A stretch of 64,000 nucleotides of DNA from Octopus vulgaris (lineage: Eukaryota), in NCBI GenBank assembly GCA_951406725.2, contig OX597818.1, forward strand, positions 97,588,001 to 97,652,000. Direction: 5' to 3'. Both the position numbers and the translations under genes were made by a program. Below the pieces are notes generated by a model, which ran no database searches, was not told the DNA's origin, and was given only the letters and a program-made list of their open reading frames with translations. Shown here piece after piece: positions 18,797 through 50,380 of this stretch. Within the stretch, counting starts at the first letter, position 1, and each line of letters begins with the position of its first letter.

Positions 18797-19580
18797 GATA
18801 AAACGGTAAGATAACAAAAGAAAGAAAGAGACCTCAATATTATGTAAATAGAGGAAATTTATCTATACAATATGTTACATTACTCGGTAGTCAAGATAAA
18901 ACTCTGAGTTTCAGATGCCGAAGTGGAAATCCACAACACCATCTCTTCGGTTATCTGGCTATTTGAAAACGTTATGAAAAAATACCGTTAAAAATGAAGG
19001 GAAATTACTCTGTTATAACTCTGCTTTGCCTGCGTACTTATACATCGCTCGCATTTTTCGTCATAAAAATTATATAAAAATATATAAAAATATATAAAAA
19101 TATATAAAAATATATAAAATCTTCTTGGGACATAACACAGAAAGCATGTTCTATCCGTTTTCTTTAGGGGACCAAAAACGTAACAGAAATTTAGTCACAT
19201 GTGGGCATGATCCGAAAAGCTCTGTCCTTGTATTTAGACATGTGGTAGGGTCTAAGCTGCTTTTCCAGATAAGCCATCTCTCCATGTCGCATAAACCGCA
19301 CCTTCCGCTGCCATTAGTATAGGGCTTACATCTGGCCAAAATCTTCCATTGTATGTTATAATCGACACCTTTATCTCTTAAAGACCAAATATGATTGGAT
19401 AATTGTGTCGCTTTTCTTTTGTTCCAGTGCCTAAAGCTCAAAGTGTGGTTATTGAACCTGGCCTTGAAATTACCCTCTGTCAGGCCCACGTATTTCTTCG
19501 TCGAAACGGTGTCTTTAGTGGTTATAGAGTTTACGGTAGCTTCATATATGATGGTCTTGGACATGCAAGCTCCATTTAGC
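18797..19580 (-). mobile_element. Inverted second copy of the same PLE 3' end, with about 60 nt of extra tail
   Basis: 18860-19580 is the reverse complement of 19711-20431, with about 3 mismatches seen. Confidence 0.9.
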
Positions 19581-20431
19581 AACTCTTCAATAGACACAAT
19601 TTAAAAATTAGTTTTAGTTCAACTACCAATTTTAAAAACATAATCAATCATAACATACAAAAAACACAAGAAGAAAACAGCTGTTCATGCAGGAATAAAG
19701 AATTGTGCCCGCTAAATGGAGCTTGCATGTCCAAGACCATCATATATGAAGCTACCGTAAACTCTATAACCACTAAAGACACCGTTTCGACGAAGAAATA
19801 CGTGGGCCTGACAGAGGGTAATTTCAAGGCCAGGTTCAATAACCACACTTTGAGCTTTAGGCACTGGAACAAAAGAAAAGCGACACAATTATCCAATCAT
19901 ATTTGGTCTTTAAGAGATAAAGGTGTCGATTATAACATACAATGGAAGATTTTGGCCAGATGTAAGCCCTATACTAACGGCAGCGGAAGGTGCGGTTTAT
20001 GCGACATGGAGAGATGGCTTATCTGGAAAAGCAGCTTAGACCCTACCACATGTCTAAATACAAGGACAGAGCTTTTCGGATCATGCCCACATGTGACTAA
20101 ATTTCTGTTACGTTTTTGGTCCCCTAAAGAAAACGGATAGAATATGCTTTCTGTGTTATGTCCCAAGAAGATTTTATATATTTTTATATATTTTTATATA
20201 TTTTTATGTATTTTTATATAATTTTTATGACGAAAAATGCGAGCGATGTATAAGTACGCAGGCAAAGCAGAGTTATAACAGAGTAATTTCCCTTCATTTT
20301 TAACGGTATTTTTTCATAACGTTTTCAAATAGCCAGATAACCGAAGAGATGGTGTTGTGGATTTCCACTTCGGCATCTGAAACTCAGAGTTTTATCTTGA
20401 CTACCGAGTAATGTAACATATTGTATAGATA
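19581..20431 (+). mobile_element. Penelope-like element 3' end: Cys-rich linker, GIY-YIG endonuclease and 3' UTR
   Basis: Open frame LFNRHNLKISFS...CSCRNKELCPLNGAC...IIYEATV...YVGLTEGNFKARFNNH...CGLCDME...LNTRTELFGSCPH, with stop at 20140. Confidence 0.9.
20335..20397 (+). ncRNA. Minimal type I hammerhead-like motif in the PLE 3' UTR (mirror copy at 18894-18956, minus strand)
   Basis: AGATAA-CCGAAGA-stem II (GATG..GTGGA/TCCAC..CATC)-T-GAAA-CT CAG AG-T-T-TTATCT. Stem I is AGATAA/TTATCT. The core is variant (U4C and an extra T). Confidence 0.6.
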
Positions 20432-33892: not shown

Positions 33893-34746
33893 CTTTATAT
33901 GACAAAGAAGTAAAAAATTGAATAATAAAGACAATCCGAAAAATAGTTACAAGAGTGCATGAGTGCATATGTGTGAAAATGTAGAAGCAGTAGAGTGCCA
34001 CACTAAATTCTTGGCAGTATGGATGCATTCATACACATGCACACACATATACACAAATACACACACATAATATATTTCTTTATTGCCCACAAGGGGCTAA
34101 ACATAGAGGAGACAAACAAGGACAGATAAAGGGATTAAGTCGATTACATCGACCCCAGTGCGTAACTGGTACTTTATTTATTGACCCCGAAAATATGAAA
34201 GGCAAAGTCGACCTCGGCAGAATTTGAACTCAGAACATAACAGCAGATGAAATACCTATTTCTTTACTACCTACAAGCGGCTAAACACAGAGAAGACAAA
34301 CAAGGACAAAGGGATTAAGTTGATCATATCGACCCCAGTGCGTAACTGGTACTTATTTAATCGACCCCGAAAGGATGATAGGCAAAGTTGACCTCGGCGG
34401 AATTTGAACTCAGAACGTAACGGCAGACGAAATACTGCTAAGCATTTTGCCCGGTGTGCTAACGTTTCTGCCAGCTCACCGCCTTCACACACACAGTGTA
34501 TATAGGTATGTATGTGCATATCTTTGTGTTTGACCCCAATTGCTGAATAACTGGCATTGGTTTGTTTATGTCCCTGTAATGTAGCAATCTAGCAACAAAA
34601 GACTAATAGAATAAGTGCCAGGTATTGGAGAAATAAAAGAACAGAGGCTGATTTGATAGACTTTTAGGTGGTGCTCCAGCATGACCACAGCCCAATGACA
34701 GAAACAAGTAAAAGAATAAAAGTATGCATGAAGGGAGGATACTTAC

Positions 34747-35914
34747 TTAATGCCAATTTCTTTAAGGTCGTTGTCTGTGAGGGAAAGAAAAACTTGCAGG
34801 TCAACATCTTGTTCTTCAAATACAGGTAAATATTTTAAGAGTCCAAGCTGTTGCAAAAGTTCAACAAGGGTTTGAGGTTTATCTGAAGGTATATCAGATG
34901 GGGTCACTGAAATAGGTAGATTGGGTGAATCTACAGGGTTTACATTTCTAGTCTGTAGAGTGGCAGGGGGACAATTTGGATTATTTTGCATGTCATCTGT
35001 AAAGAGACTGTCATTATTGTTGTTGTTGCTACTGTGAGATGGCAGCCATTGTTGTGAAAACGAATCTAATTTATCACCAAAATATAATTCCCTCACTACA
35101 TTACTTTCACTCACAGCAGGAAAGTTTGTTGGTGGAGCAACCCCACCTAAGTTGGCAGATAAAAAGTGTAGATGGTTTTGATCAAGTTTATCAGAGGGAA
35201 AATCTGATTCATTTTGTGATGGCGATCTGTGCATAAGAAATTGACCTGCTGTATTATTATCATGTTGAATCACAGGGAAATTTGCATATTGTCCAGCAAG
35301 GTTTGATGTTCTAGTGTATGGATCAACTATTAAATCCGAGGGACAAATTGATAGAGGAGAACCGATACAAGAATCCAGATTCTGTGACATTTGTTCCTTG
35401 CCAGGAAAGGATTTCATTTCATTGTGTTCAGGCTGATGTGGAGTAAAATGTCTTTTGGCGCTGTCACTTTGGATTTTATATTGAGTATCCAAATAAAACA
35501 GATTCCTATCATGATTTGAGTTAAGAACTGAATCACCAGATATTGTACCCCAAGTCAAACGGCAAGGATCAGAAGAATAACCTCGGTTTAGCTGGTTGTT
35601 TGAAGAACTTATCTCTAGATGTGCAAGACCAAGTGCATCATCTCTAGGTACCTTCAACATCTCTTTTGGAATCACAGAGGGCTGAGATAGGGTTTGATGG
35701 GCTCGTTCTTTTGAGAGCTTACCAGATACATACTCATGTTTTGGCAAAAGACTCTTGGGAAATGATGAACTTACAATATCATCACTGTCTGAGCTATTAC
35801 TATGACTAAGTTGCAAAGCTGCAGCAAGACCACCACTGGAGCCTGAACTACTTTTGATAGTCAAAGCCCCAGTCTGAGAAAACACTGTACTTTCATCTTC
35901 ATTATCACAAGAAT
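34747..35914 (-). CDS. ANKS3: ANKS3 coding exon 9 (long Ser-rich linker and most of the SAM domain)
   Basis: 1168-nt open frame ending [43 protein letters not shown] (SAM). tttcAG/GTAAG boundaries, phase 1 to 2. Confidence 0.93.
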
Positions 35915-37099
35915 CTGAAACAAGAAACAAAGACATGATTTCAGTATCATATTAACAAGAGAGACTGTTTAACTGTTTAACATTCCTGTAATGATGTTAA
36001 TTATCCTCCAAAACATAGAACTGGTATTTTCTGTGAGTCACATTGTCTCATAGTAAATAAGAAAGATAATATCTAGCGTTATACATTGATACAGAACATA
36101 GCTGTGGGGTAAAACCACTTTCCATAATTACTGGTAATATAAATTTAAAGGGTAAATGTATTAAAATCATTAGACAATTATGAGTTATAGAGGGCCCAAA
36201 ATCCCTAATGAAATTTCTAACTATATTTTAGATGACTCATTTATCATTAAAAATTAAATAAAGATGTCTTTTAAGTAAGTCCTGAAGAATTTTTTGCTAT
36301 TGATATTCACCTGAATTTTCATAACAAAATGAAGGTAATAAAAAGATTTTTCTCTTTAATAGGATGTTGGCTTAGCTCAAATGAAATTGGAACCAGATGG
36401 TCTGGTACCCCTTACTAACAGCAAGGTGGATTTGGATGATGCAGAATTAAGTGTTATGTCTAAAACATGTAATGAAATCTGCAATAGTTTTTAAACTTTC
36501 TGTTGGCTGTCAATACCTTATAAACTTGTCTTTGAGATATGAAGTTGAAGAATTAATATATTGATTCTTCTGTATCCTCCACAATATAACACTTTGTTGT
36601 GCACCAGGCTCCATCGTCTTCTTTGGCATAGTTTCTATGCCCTTCTTAATACCAATCACTTTACAAAATGTACTTGGTGCATTTCATGTGGTACCAGGAG
36701 CAGTGAGGTCACCAAACAAACAAGACCCTTCAGCTGAAGGATGAGTGGTATTAATGGAGCTGAGTTTGTGCCAGGTGATGAGAGGTCAGAGTATGAATAG
36801 AGGGACAGAAATAGGTGTCTTGCAGTAAAGGGGATACCTGCTTACTCCAGCTGGACAGAGAAAAGAAAGAAGGAGAGGAAGAGAGAGAGACAGGAGGAGA
36901 GAGAGAAAGAGGAGAGCAAGAAGATGATGTGACAAGGAGGTACATTCAAAATACAGGGAGGTGTGTACATTCAAAATACAAGGAGGTGTGTATAAGGGCT
37001 GGAGAGGGTGAATTGATGGGTGGGTTAGTTTGTGAGATTGAGTATAGTAGTGGAAATCAGCTGTCTAGCGGATGTTAACATGAAGCTAAAGAAAATAGC

Positions 37100-45870: not shown

Positions 45871-46936
45871 AGATCGGTCATGATGGATATTTAAAACTAT
45901 ACTTTTCGGATAAATATACCCACTCTGACAGATACACGAGTGCATCTTTTCCCTGACTTATGGCCTCTTAGACGACTCACGCGTACTGTTGTATTTCGGG
46001 ACGGTCATTTTTTTTTGCCAAATAAACACACGCACTATATATTCATTCTTAGCAGTAATACCTGTCATTGAGTAGGTAATTACTTTTTCTGTTTCTCGGG
46101 CCGAGAAGCTAGAAAAATAGGTATACCACATAGAAGAATAGCTTTACAGAAACCGGTTGACTGTGATGGCACTGAAAAGGCTGCAGGTCACGTGGAACAT
46201 CACTTCATATAGAAAAATCATTGCACGTTGTGCGTTTGTTTGGTGTTCGTTCTTTGACGGTCTCTCTTTTTTTTTTTAGTAGACATTTTTTTGATTAGGA
46301 ATATCAGTAAGTAATAGTGAAATGAAATTACAAATGTTGTGTCCCGTTAGTGTTAGCACTGAAATTTCGATGCTATATTACGGGAATGGAAGCCAAGGCT
46401 ACAGTAAGTAACAGTCCAATGAAATTACAAATGCTGTGTCCTGTAAGTCAGATTTAGGTTTACTTGTATGTGTATATTATATAAGAGAAAAACATGTAAT
46501 AATTGAAGTGGAAAAACGATGGATTTCATATACGAACTTCTGTTTGTTCTTCATATGGCGAAAGAAAGTGGTATAAGAAATTGTAAGAGCTTAAATTTGA
46601 ATGGGACATTTGATCATATAACTGGTATGTGAGGAACGAAGATAGTATCACGTTTACCACTAGTGAGAATATTTGCTTCAGTGCAGTTCGTCATAGGTTT
46701 GTGCACAAGTAGTGTCGCCTCCCTTGAATCACTTACCTTCAATTTATGGGACAAACACACAAATGGATAGAATCTCTCTTTTATATATATACATACGTAC
46801 GTACAAAGGGTGCGGTGGGTAAATTGTCACCAGTTTTTATTTTTTATTTCACGCACGCGCATTGTTTGTCTTTGATTTTGTCGACTACACAGTATGTTAA
46901 AGTCAGTTAGGCACTGTCTGTGAGAAAGACAACACC

Positions 46937-48607
46937 CTGAGTTCGGTCGTGTTTTTTTTACGCTCGTAAAATTCGGTAAAAAAGATCAGAAAGAATTGTT
47001 GTTGTTGTGGAAATTTTGAACGGCGTTGAGGCGGTTTCGCGTTTTCGCTGGTTCTGCGCGTTACACTTTTTCTGTTTTGGCGGCCGTTTTTCGGCCTGTC
47101 AGACAGGAGGAAATGGATGACCACTCCCTAGCGGAGGAATCGGAGGAGGAATGGATATTTGAGAACTTGTCGGAGACATCGAACTCTGAAGACGAGCAAA
47201 TCGGTGATGTAAATAATGTGGAGATAAAAAACAGGAAAACGTACGCAGGAGTTGCAAAAAAGAAGACGGCACAGGAAAAGGAAATAAACCTAGGAAAATT
47301 GCCAGGTTTCCAGAGGTATATGAGGAAGGACAGCGGCGAGGTGGAACTGGAACCACCACCAAAGAGAAAGGAATGGTACAATAAGAGGACCATTATTTAC
47401 AGGGTGTTCGCGAACGAAAGAAAGAAAATAGAGGTTGTAAACATGGAGTGGATAGAGGAGGCCCTGAGAAGATCGGAGGAGGAAATCATTTTTCTGACTC
47501 GAGGATCGAAGTACGGTACTGTAGTGGTACATTTTAAAAGTGAGACTGCAGCGAGGAAGATGGCGGTGAAGGCGGTGAAGTCAGAAAAGGTAACACTTTT
47601 ACCTATGTATTTGAATAGAAGGATTACACGAGTGAGGGTGGAGGGAGTGCCACCAAACGTTGAGGCAGAGTGGATTGTGGCGGCTGTGATCAGCGGCCAC
47701 GAGGAGGAAGTGGATATTCTCCATGCCTCGGTTAAGACCGAGGGCTGGAGAGGCGTAACAGTGGAGCTGAACGTGCAGGCAGAAAACGAGGTACTGGTGG
47801 ACCTGGTGGAAAGCATCAGATTGGGAGACGTGATTATGAGAGTGTGGGTGGAGGGCAGAGCTCCACGTTGTTACAAGTGTGGCCTGAGGGGCCACATAAG
47901 AGCCTTCTGCCCTCCCCCACCAAGAGAAAAGGAAATCGTTGAGGAAGCTCCAAAAGAGGAGGCCCCAAAAGAGGAAGAAATTAAAGAGAAGCAGACGGAA
48001 AGGGAAACGACAGAGGAGGAGGAGATGCAAAAAGAGTGGGAGGAGGGCAGAAAGAAGAGAAAAGGAAAGAAAAGGAAAAACTGTGCGAAGCCCCAACCCA
48101 CCCCAACACCACCCACACCCTTGGAGACCCATCCTGCCCCTGCAAACAGCGATTCCACCCACTCCCCGCCTACAAGAAAAACGAAAACAGACACACAGAA
48201 CATACAAAGGCCCAAGTCCTACTTTTTATGTGTTGTGAGGAAGGGGGATACCGAGAACGCAAGAAGGATTTTTGAGGACGATGTATGGCAAGAGTATGAA
48301 GACGGTAGCTACGCGGTGTTTGATTTTGAACTTATGGGCTCTTTGATGAGCAAGTGTAATGAACTGCGTATAAATTGTTTGTCAGCGTATATGAAGGATG
48401 ATATGATAGAGAGGTATGAAAGAGAAATGAAGGGTGAGGTAAAAGACTTTGGAATTGTGATAGGAAACGGAAAGGTAAGTGATGCTTTCATATTATCATT
48501 TTTTTCATTTTAACATTCATTTACTCATAATTTTAATCACATTGTTTTATATCCCCCATGTCTTGTAATGTTTCCTCTTCGTAGCCCCTAGTGGGTAATA
48601 AAGAAAT
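46937..48607 (+). mobile_element. ORF1-only non-LTR retroelement (HAL1-like architecture)
   Basis: Perfect 14-bp TSD AGAAAGACAACACC at 46923-46936 and 48608-48621. One ORF and no RT. The 3' end reads tagcccctagtgggtAATAAAGAAAT. Confidence 0.85.
47113..48513 (+). CDS. Intact L1/Tx1-type ORF1 (gag-like) protein, 466 aa, with an RRM-like region and a CCHC zinc knuckle
   Basis: Uninterrupted ORF. Motifs include TYAGVAK, YGTVVVHFKSETAARK, TRVRVEGVPP and RVWVEGRAPRCYKCGLRGHIRAFCP (CX2CX4HX4C), followed by acidic/basic and Pro-rich tracts. Confidence 0.85.
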   Translation: MDDHSLAEESEEEWIFENLSETSNSEDEQIGDVNNVEIKNRKTYAGVAKKKTAQEKEINLGKLPGFQRYMRKDSGEVELEPPPKRKEWYNKRTIIYRVFANERKKIEVVNMEWIEEALRRSEEEIIFLTRGSKYGTVVVHFKSETAARKMAVKAVKSEKVTLLPMYLNRRITRVRVEGVPPNVEAEWIVAAVISGHEEEVDILHASVKTEGWRGVTVELNVQAENEVLVDLVESIRLGDVIMRVWVEGRAPRCYKCGLRGHIRAFCPPPPREKEIVEEAPKEEAPKEEEIKEKQTERETTEEEEMQKEWEEGRKKRKGKKRKNCAKPQPTPTPPTPLETHPAPANSDSTHSPPTRKTKTDTQNIQRPKSYFLCVVRKGDTENARRIFEDDVWQEYEDGSYAVFDFELMGSLMSKCNELRINCLSAYMKDDMIERYEREMKGEVKDFGIVIGNGKVSDAFILSFFSF

Positions 48608-50147
48608 AGAAAGACAACACCATGACGCAATTCACCCTGCCAGAAATTTGGAAACGACATGCTGTACTGCTTGGCATTCGCGCCGGAAGCTCAAATACGA
48701 ACATTTCAGAGTGTTTAGGTATCAATAAGAGGACATGTACCAAGAATGAGAAAAATCAAACATCCAGTCAACATCATGGTGTTTGGAGTGATCTCTAGTG
48801 ACGGCGGCATTATGCTTCCATTCATCTTCCCACACGGCCTCAAACTCAACACGGAGACCTACATGAAGTGCCTGGAGAAGGTAGTGCTGCCCTGGGTCAA
48901 GAGGGTGGCTAGGCAACAGGACTCTGCACCATGCCACACAAGCAGGAGAACCCAGTCATAGCTGTCAGACAATTTCTGCGACCACATCACCCCTAACATC
49001 TGGCTACCTAACTCTCCAGACTGTAATCCCCTTGATTATTATGTGTGGGGCGCAGTTGAGCGAGAGACCAACAAAACTCCTTGTAACACCAAAGATGAAC
49101 TGAAGGCAAGGATTAGGGCAGCATTCACCAACTTAAACAATGAGACTGACCAGAAGAGTTGCTGGAGATTCTAAAGTCGTCTGGAGGCCGTGGTTGAAGC
49201 CAATTGCAATTTTATTGAACAAATATACTCATTAGTATTTCAAGATATTTTTTATGTAATTTTGGTAAATATATCTATAAAAATGAGATGCCAATGTTAT
49301 TTTTATCCAGGACTTGCTAGTCATGCACTGCATGTCCGTTGGTTTTTTTTTTTTATATAACTCAAAAATTATTTTAAAAACATAATGTATTTATAACCAC
49401 ATTGAAAAGTTGTCCAAATCATTGGAAACTGAGCTAAAATAGTTAATTTGCTTTAAAGGAAACCCGTCCTGATTGATACTTCGCTGTATTCCCATTTTGC
49501 TTCCTCTGGGTATGCTTTAAGAAAAACGTATATGAAATCTTTTGTACCCTCCCCCACTTCCTATCTTTAAATAGCTATCATTTCTCTTCTGCCTATCTGT
49601 AAAGTCAATGCCTGTAAGATTTTTTTTTCCTTGATAAAGTAACTGCTGAAGTCATGCTTTTGATGAAGGCGAATGTTAAGCTTTGATCTCCCCTCCTTTT
49701 CTATCAGTTCGTCTTTGTCAACCCGTAAAAGTTCTGACCAATACATATCAACAATCTCATAATTCTTAATTAGTTAGCTCAAATGTTTGGAATATCTTTC
49801 TACCGAAATTACCTGATTTGCGAATCTACAAGAAATTCATGAGACAATTTCAGTTTAATTTGTATGAAAAGAAAAAATTAGTTAACTGGTAGTGTTACGC
49901 TTAGTGGTTAGGGTGTCAGCATCATGATCGTAAGACTGTGGTTTCGATTCCTGGACCGGGCGACGCGTTGTGTTCTTGAGCAAAACACTTCATTTCACGT
50001 TGCTCCAGTCCACTCAGCTGGCGAAAATGAGTAACACTGCGATGGACTGGCGTCCCGTCCAGCTGGCGAACACATACGCCGTAGAAACCAAGAAACCAGG
50101 CCCATGAGCCTGGCTAGGCTTTAAAAGGGCGCATTTATTTATAAAAT

Positions 50148-50380
50148 GCCGGCGAGCTGGAAGAAACGTTAGCACGCCGGGCGAAATGCGTAGCCGTATT
50201 TCATCTGGCATTACGTTCTGAGTTCAAATTCCGCCGAGGTCGACTTTACCTTTCATCCTTTCAGGGTCGATAAATTAAGTACCAGTTACGCACTGGGGTC
50301 GATGTAATCGACTTAATCCGTTTGTCTGTCCTTGTTTGTCCCTTCTGTGTTTAGCCCCTTGTGGGTAGTTAAGAAATAGG
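50148..50380 (+). mobile_element. tRNA-derived SINE family A (Meta-domain-like). Other copies at about 1-290(+), 9990-10180(-), 25720-25935(-), 26490-26705(-), 29868-30103(-), 30708-30930(+), 34073-34485(-), 39517-39730(+), 42722-42935(+), 57670-57850(-), 58470-58680(-), 59300-59490(-), 62560-62760(+)
   Basis: Consensus ggcgagctgg.agaaacgttagc...gagttcaaattcc (B-box)...gcctttcatcctttcggggtcgataaattaagtaccag. Two alternative 3' tails occur. Confidence 0.85.

Follow-up and report, generated by a model that had tools for sequence, protein, structure and literature searches.

Non-autonomous long interspersed elements (LINEs) that keep a first open reading frame (ORF1) have been named in three clades, HeT-A in Jockey, HAL1 in L1 and Ag-Sponge in CR1 (PMC5786205; this and the other papers are cited for the parts of their text available to us). 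HAL1 is defined in PMC5753468, and targeting by the ORF1 protein (ORF1p) of HeT-A has been described (PMC5537684). Another form of dependence is that of Tx1-Mar and SINEU, which share a transposon target with tandem insertions (PMC4494074). Here we analyse a 64,000-nucleotide stretch of the Octopus vulgaris genome (contig OX597818.1, positions 97,588,001 to 97,652,000, forward strand; hereafter the window) containing a 1671-bp ORF1-only insert that lacks a reverse transcriptase (RT). The insert is very probably a recent solo copy of an old ORF1-only family of several subfamilies, with ORF1 under purifying selection, which is likely mobilised in trans by a co-resident two-ORF LINE of the L1 group, likely of the Tx1 clade, with which it has the head, the tail and some targets in common.

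The resemblance to HAL1 of mammals is that of a non-autonomous derivative of an L1-group LINE coding only for ORF1p (PMC5753468, PMC5786205), although here ORF1 is differently built (see below), the conserved, structured tail has no poly(A) run, the partner is sequence-specific and copies form mixed arrays. HeT-A (PMC5537684) and Ag-Sponge (PMC5786205) are likewise selected ORF1-only elements beside an RT-bearing partner, and HeT-A also forms mixed head-to-tail arrays, but their clades are Jockey and CR1; HeT-A extends the ends of chromosomes, where the octopus elements would use internal nicks with target-site duplications (TSDs) at many loci, and the targeting that HeT-A ORF1p determines (PMC5537684) is a candidate role here. 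In crocodilians (Tx1-Mar with SINEU) and in Xenopus (Tx1L in Tx1D), Tx1 LINEs prefer a site in a non-autonomous DNA transposon, and their dependants use this target too, more or less strictly, and form tandem stacks around TSDs; those dependants are non-coding SINEs (short interspersed elements) and their targets Mariner, piggyBac or Harbinger, whereas here several old families have their own ORF1p and the target is mainly Helitron-like (PMC4494074). To the three clades known to hold ORF1-present dependants (L1, Jockey, CR1; PMC5786205) the octopus set would add an old, diversified one beside a sequence-specific, likely Tx1-clade partner. Recently active L1-Tx1 families of Octopus vulgaris are listed in PMC13282606, whose main text, in the part available, contains neither 'ORF1' nor 'non-autonomous' and whose supplements may include these families without labelling them. 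The literature searched yielded no description of ORF1-only Tx1 dependants; Repbase, Dfam and subscription journals lay outside this search.

The insert is flanked by a perfect 14-bp TSD (AGAAAGACAACACC; coordinates in Table 1) and lies in a decayed mariner-type transposon, which from its motifs we take to be a maT element. The empty site can be read from paralogs of this host: among 30 host-transposon loci found by a search with its 5' end, 29 have a single TSD copy joined to the transposase start, the 30th being the window itself. The common paralog form of the target is AGAAAAACAGCACC; both TSD copies in the window differ from it and are identical to each other. As both carry the host copy's own variant, the insertion postdates decay of that copy, whose 5' part is 85–88% identical to its paralogs and whose transposase frames hold stops and a frameshift. 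The window copy of the element is 98.4–98.7% identical to three other copies, with 8 substitutions and a 25-nt deletion that are private to it. Joints across the insertion site occur in four DNA-like runs; the host is high-copy, so these are no proof of an empty allele here. Contigs of family members, mostly sister types, were found in four runs whose RNA origin is a guess.

We searched the genome with the element's DNA (144 matches, from 38 of 555 candidates scored) and with the ORF1 core protein (150 of 13,318 first-look candidates scored). All 150 scored protein matches are 89–100% identical and 149 have no stop in the core, so that the ORF1 copies number at least 150. In 30/30 loci from the protein search the tail follows 685–736 nt downstream of the core with no intervening ORF2, and in 27/30 loci found with the C-terminal domain (CTD) it stands directly behind the CTD; the other three are interrupted or fragments, and ORF2 occurs in none. 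Unit types have cores 86–96%, 58–63% and 34–37% identical to that of the window. The subfamily of the window copy has few members: its head and its tail each have 9 exact matches. Independent insertions carry different TSDs at a constant ORF1/tail junction. A sequence-only reading of this DNA had proposed a multi-copy, non-autonomous family without RT, and both parts of that proposal are borne out.

The ORF1-only structure is a family trait kept under purifying selection. The ratio of non-synonymous to synonymous change (dN/dS) in the core is 0.12–0.20 between the window ORF1 and seven other ORF1s from RT-less subfamilies, among which synonymous distances reach 1.7. Against a C14 copy the window core shows 18 synonymous and 9 non-synonymous changes (p 1e-6), and dN/dS in the CTD of the same pair is 0.11. 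The family is old and diverse and the window copy young, so that of a family supposed to be 'young or selected' the selection stands, and the youth belongs to the copy and not to the family.

The encoded protein was modelled with AlphaFold together with 15 family members. The core (aa 56–250) is confident (block predicted local distance difference test score, pLDDT, mostly 66–88), the N-terminus and linker are disordered and the CTD is folded. Foldseek pairs the ORF1 model with tandem RRM proteins, 70 matches having an E value of 0.001 or lower, and the CCHC knuckle, under the Pfam cut-off in the window copy (E 0.064), is over it in a sister type. Folded alone, the CTD gives a ferredoxin-like alpha-beta domain (mean pLDDT 69); it has no Foldseek match at E 0.001, and its best structural match (Z 6.8 over 63 residues) is one among many ferredoxin-like folds, from which no function is readable. 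The RRM-like region, the knuckle and the unrecognised C-terminal stretch of about 100 aa described from the letters are thus all present, the RRMs in tandem and the C-terminal stretch as a folded domain without a specific match; the described length of 466 aa differs from the family form, which is 463 aa. Mammalian L1 and HAL1 ORF1p belong to Pfam transposase 22 (coiled coil, single RRM, CTD). No L1 ORF1 family is among the Pfam matches of the window ORF1 up to E 1, and the ORF1 is not of the HAL1 type. As modelled, it is RRM–RRM–CCHC with a separate CTD, that is type I in the typing of PMC4120745, and not the type II (coiled-coil–RRM–CTD) of mammalian L1. ORF1p is predicted to bind RNA through its tandem RRM-like domains and knuckle. 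A comparison of the core with a collection of 5.8 billion proteins gave no match among 1012 candidates, which says nothing about novelty.

Several lines of evidence point to the enzyme that the family may use. A 5.2-kb two-ORF LINE was found inside arrays of ORF1-only units, one copy of it with an intact 1131-aa ORF2 bearing APE, RT and zf-RVT domains. The closest solved relative of this ORF2 is L1 ORF2p (E 1e-64, versus 4e-26 for R2), which places the partner in the L1 group; membership of the Tx1 clade is likely, one automatically named 'Transposon TX1' protein (38% identity) standing among the matches listed (120, most unnamed). Beyond the 21-nt head and the 45-nt tail, the window element and one partner copy have no clear DNA match, and their ORF1 cores are 36% identical; a two-ORF parent matching the element almost exactly was not found among the candidates scored. 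From the shared ends and shared targets it is likely that partner ORF2p mobilises the family in trans. The earlier idea that the element borrows a partner RT fares well in that a LINE with common ends and targets exists, with mobilisation itself remaining a deduction, and needs amending in that this partner is sequence-specific and likely Tx1. The motif AGGTAAGT (read in the window, L144 and L130), which we take to be a perfect splice-donor consensus, follows ORF1 in near unit types, precedes the ORF2 start in the partner and is absent from distant types. An abundant tRNA-like SINE (window 50150–50379; L041 8250–9350), which forms 184-bp tandem arrays, has a terminal tail nearly identical to that of the insert and the partner and may use the same enzyme; the available parts of PMC3747384 and PMC4758252 name no partner for the octopus SINE tail.

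The targets are shared as well. Of 25 partner copies examined, 23 were parsed and 16 of these terminate at a single base in a 1-kb repeat; an arm of this repeat lies behind the partner in 15 of 20 longer loci, and 5' junctions are varied. Helitrons have 5' TC and 3' CTAG ends with a subterminal hairpin and insert between A and T. The target repeat shows TC and CTAG ends between A and T, with the 3' hairpin and CTAG in 22/30 loci, and by these sequence features is a non-autonomous Helitron-like element. Thirty copies, retrieved with a query taken from a filled copy, comprise 19 empty, 6 filled by ORF1-only types, 4 without the site and 1 with another insert. Partner and sister families form mixed head-to-tail arrays at this site, some array junctions being without a target duplication and others with one, and template jumping was considered as a source of arrays. 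The window subfamily inserts mostly outside the Helitron, its TSDs, where they are clear, being 10–19 bp long; a second target on C3, C7 and C20 is occupied by both this subfamily and the partner. The C14 pair carries, at its 5' end, 18 nt of the C20 variant of that second target, which suggests transcription from an upstream flank. TATAAA stands 29 nt before the nick at the target that the C14 pair carries, and TATAWA occurs at -29 to -31 in 2 of ~15 independent sites outside the Helitron whose TSD is clear (counted by eye; excess P 0.13 against the window background, 0.006 with microsatellites removed from it); the window copy's own site has no TATAWA at -29 to -31.

The 3' end of the window copy is not the family form. 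Its 25 deleted nt are present in eight other aligned copies of its subfamily and gone only here, and the intact sister ORF of 463 aa ends in VSDAGGGGR. The last 9 residues of the window's 466 aa and its 94-nt 3' untranslated region (UTR), between the ORF1 stop and the insert end, therefore follow from the private deletion. The 176-nt 5' UTR, ~94-nt 3' UTR and 14-bp TSD reported earlier are all real, the 3' UTR being private to this copy. In all near unit types a putative 15-bp hairpin closes a G-rich loop; over 31 sequences 98% of cells are paired, and the changes are mostly G-U-compatible (8 pairs varying on one side and 1 on both). A C-run ~55–60 nt from the end is a possible pairing partner of this loop, and the near types also carry the terminal hairpin and AATAAA. 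The hairpins of distant types and of the partner differ in sequence and again have a G-rich loop, and one type has no such fold. Rfam, run on three loci, gave sub-threshold hairpin matches only, none in the element's tail. Having lost the long hairpin, the window copy probably serves less well as a template than its sisters do. We discounted a possible short hydrophobic frame in the 3' UTR, as its length varies freely in the alignment.

Taken as a mechanism, the reading we prefer would run as follows. Transcription of the element would come first, starting in the upstream flank for some source loci at least, since daughter copies carry 5' pieces of the source target. ORF1p would then bind its own RNA via the tandem RRM-like domains and knuckle, and partner ORF2p would recognise a structured 3' end made up of the long hairpin with its G-rich loop, the downstream C-run, the terminal hairpin and AATAAA. 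The same enzyme would nick the target, prime reverse transcription and leave a 10–24 bp duplication. The partner and CTD type-B subfamilies would go mostly to one Helitron-like site and build mixed head-to-tail arrays there, and CTD type-A subfamilies to many other sites.

Several observations weigh against this. Given the fractions of candidates scored (150/13,318 and 38/555), the search may have missed a two-ORF element whose ORF1 is closer. The Tx1 assignment is drawn from one automatic protein name and target specificity, and other Tx1-like two-ORF families, ~68% identical to the partner, exist and could supply the enzyme instead. The close pair C29c and C1c changes neutrally (dN/dS 0.89), as expected after insertion, and many copies have frameshifts in the A-rich linker. 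Not each unit is a separate insertion: the C14 pair, 100% identical in ungapped columns, is a DNA-level duplicate, and such duplicates, together with six 3.6-kb repeats on C1, make up part of the copy number. Covariation in the hairpin is thin, its one pair with a double change being reached by 122/500 shuffles, and loop-to-C-run pairing is significant in 1/11 tails tested singly.

What directs the elements to their sites is a separate matter. Two CTD types, A (that of the window) and B, each occur on both diverged cores, and in one pair the synonymous distance is 1.56 in the core versus 0.36 in the CTD; from these two facts together we infer that gene halves have been swapped. Type B makes up 43/46 units in Helitrons and 16/48 elsewhere, and the 29 type-A units divide into 1 in a Helitron and 28 elsewhere (~16 distinct sites), in a count over 18 Helitron and 32 other loci chosen non-randomly from fetched loci and inflated by duplicates. 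CTD type is associated with site class but linked to 3' UTR and ancestry, and because CTD, 3' UTR and tail travel together, protein and RNA effects on the target are inseparable. One speculative and rather doubtful interpretation is that ORF1-only elements serve as interchangeable address modules for one Tx1-type enzyme, with two cores (~60% identical) combined with two CTDs and the site following the CTD (B, Helitron; A, scattered, some ~30 bases behind TATA boxes). If true, ORF1p would steer an endonuclease-bearing LINE at internal sites, as HeT-A ORF1p does at telomeres.

We give roughly even chances to the alternative that RNA sets the target, source copies being read through into the downstream flank, the flank pairing with the nicked primer and the lineage returning to like sites while the CTD rides along with the 3' half. 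This is compatible with trans-mobilisation by the partner and competes only with steering by the CTD. It would fit the exchange of CTD, 3' UTR and tail together at each type swap, the source-target flank at daughter 5' ends (C14 with the C20 target variant) and the presence of type B at 12/32 non-Helitron loci; type-A copies, however, are at ~16 different sites and not at one, and the read-through is itself hypothetical. The family offers a natural experiment on why an RT-borrowing parasite maintains its own ORF1p and on whether the insertion site of a LINE is chosen by ORF1p or by the 3' RNA, and its core-by-CTD swaps and the window copy's hairpin deletion are ready-made test constructs.

That the copies spread as passengers, with Helitron rolling-circle copying, segmental duplication and unequal crossing-over multiplying a few old insertions and ORF1 selection reflecting few source loci, is improbable as a full account. 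Solo copies, the window copy included, have their own TSDs in unrelated hosts, partner 5' junctions are varied, and the junction repeats at L134 and L138 share their local variant with the 3' flank. Passenger copying would explain why arrays on C8 and C18 start with the same unit and junction, why one left junction is common to 5/6 filled Helitrons, why both flanks are common to two copies, on C7 and C3, and why exact tandem duplicates exist (C14 and the C1 repeats). Array content nonetheless differs, and such copying explains part of the copy number and not the window insertion.

A one-off or recurrent internal deletion of an extant two-ORF LINE, its ORF intact through youth alone, is largely refuted and in our view highly improbable. 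The window copy is indeed young, an internally deleted partner copy occurs in two arrays, and AGGTAAGT, which follows ORF1, recurs where ORF1 and ORF2 of the partner meet, as an old deletion would predict, yet the same ORF1-to-tail structure recurs through the 30/30 and 27/30 loci, purifying selection acts between RT-less subfamilies across large synonymous distances, and the partner's ORF1 core is 36% identical. Least probable of all is a domesticated host gene for a ZCCHC3-like tandem RNA-binding protein spread as retrocopies, for although the ESM Atlas has a ZCCHC3 RNA-binding-domain cluster at 0.90 among the look-alikes and purifying selection is strong, head, tail and targets are common with an active-looking LINE, arrays lie inside repeats, frameshifts are frequent, no intron-bearing parent is among the matches and Pfam gives no ZCCHC3 domain match.

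Table 1. Features of the ORF1-only insert and its host transposon (window coordinates).
Feature	Position	Strand	Remarks
5' part of decayed mariner-type host transposon	46805..46922	+	paralog comparison
Left TSD	46923..46936	+	14 bp; first A a possible microhomology with last A of tail
ORF1-only non-LTR retroelement, solo copy	46937..48607	+	1671 bp
5' UTR of insert	46937..47112	+	176 nt
21-nt head	46938..46958	+	identical to head of partner copy L129; DNA comparison
ORF1 of insert	47113..48513	+	466 aa; last 9 residues read-through from private deletion
Tandem RRM-like core	47278..47862 (aa 56-250)	+	AlphaFold/Foldseek; under purifying selection
CCHC zinc knuckle	47869..47910 (aa 253-266)	+	C/H invariant across 15 aligned ORF1s
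CTD, type A	48211..48468	+	predicted ferredoxin/RRM-like alpha-beta fold, without specific match
AGGTAAGT motif	48473..48480	+	also at partner's ORF1/ORF2 junction; candidate function
Private 25-nt deletion site	48481..48486	+	removes G-loop, 3' arm of conserved 15-bp hairpin and native stop
3' tail common to insert and partner LINE	48563..48607	+	87% over 45 nt
Terminal hairpin	48584-48596	+	within shared tail
AATAAA	48597-48602	+	within shared tail
Right TSD	48608..48621	+	second copy of 14-bp repeat
Broken transposase frame of host transposon	48622..49250 (right end approximate)	+	insert directly 5' of its start codon

Further sites and units were noted. Eleven matches ~1.75 kb apart form a long array at G000:C2:138773021-138792940. 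At L061 the Helitron-like target repeat (~496–828 of 1042) includes a decayed fragment homologous to these ORF1s (~28%, E 6e-5), with the insertion site inside the fragment. A recurrent target lies ~13 nt inside the 5' end of the tRNA-like SINE (L009, L025), and one site in another mariner-type repeat is taken by type-B units with a variant tail (L043, L118, L119, L122). Several type-A and type-C units stand 2.5–3 kb upstream of C2H2 zinc-finger reading frames and are co-duplicated with these (L179-L180, L187, L045-L046); such units may target the 5' parts of genes in zinc-finger clusters. In L041 (4710–5924) a family copy is immediately followed by an acidic frame of 404 aa that is unrelated to ORF1, contains internal repeats and is hydrophobic at its C-terminus.

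Over 29 type-B copies, A>G changes number 38 and T>C changes 12. One of these copies, the first unit of the C10 array (L038), has 17 private changes, of which 12 are A>G and none is T>C, a pattern as expected of edited RNA being copied; judged from the substitutions it appears real in rare copies and not in the window copy, which has 2 A>G among 8 private changes. Elsewhere in the window, a 397-aa host exon (34743–35936, minus strand) ends in what we take to be a SAM-domain-like stretch, and two identical 137-aa frames in inverted orientation (19151–19564, minus strand; 19727–20140, plus strand) seem to resemble a Penelope-type GIY-YIG end.

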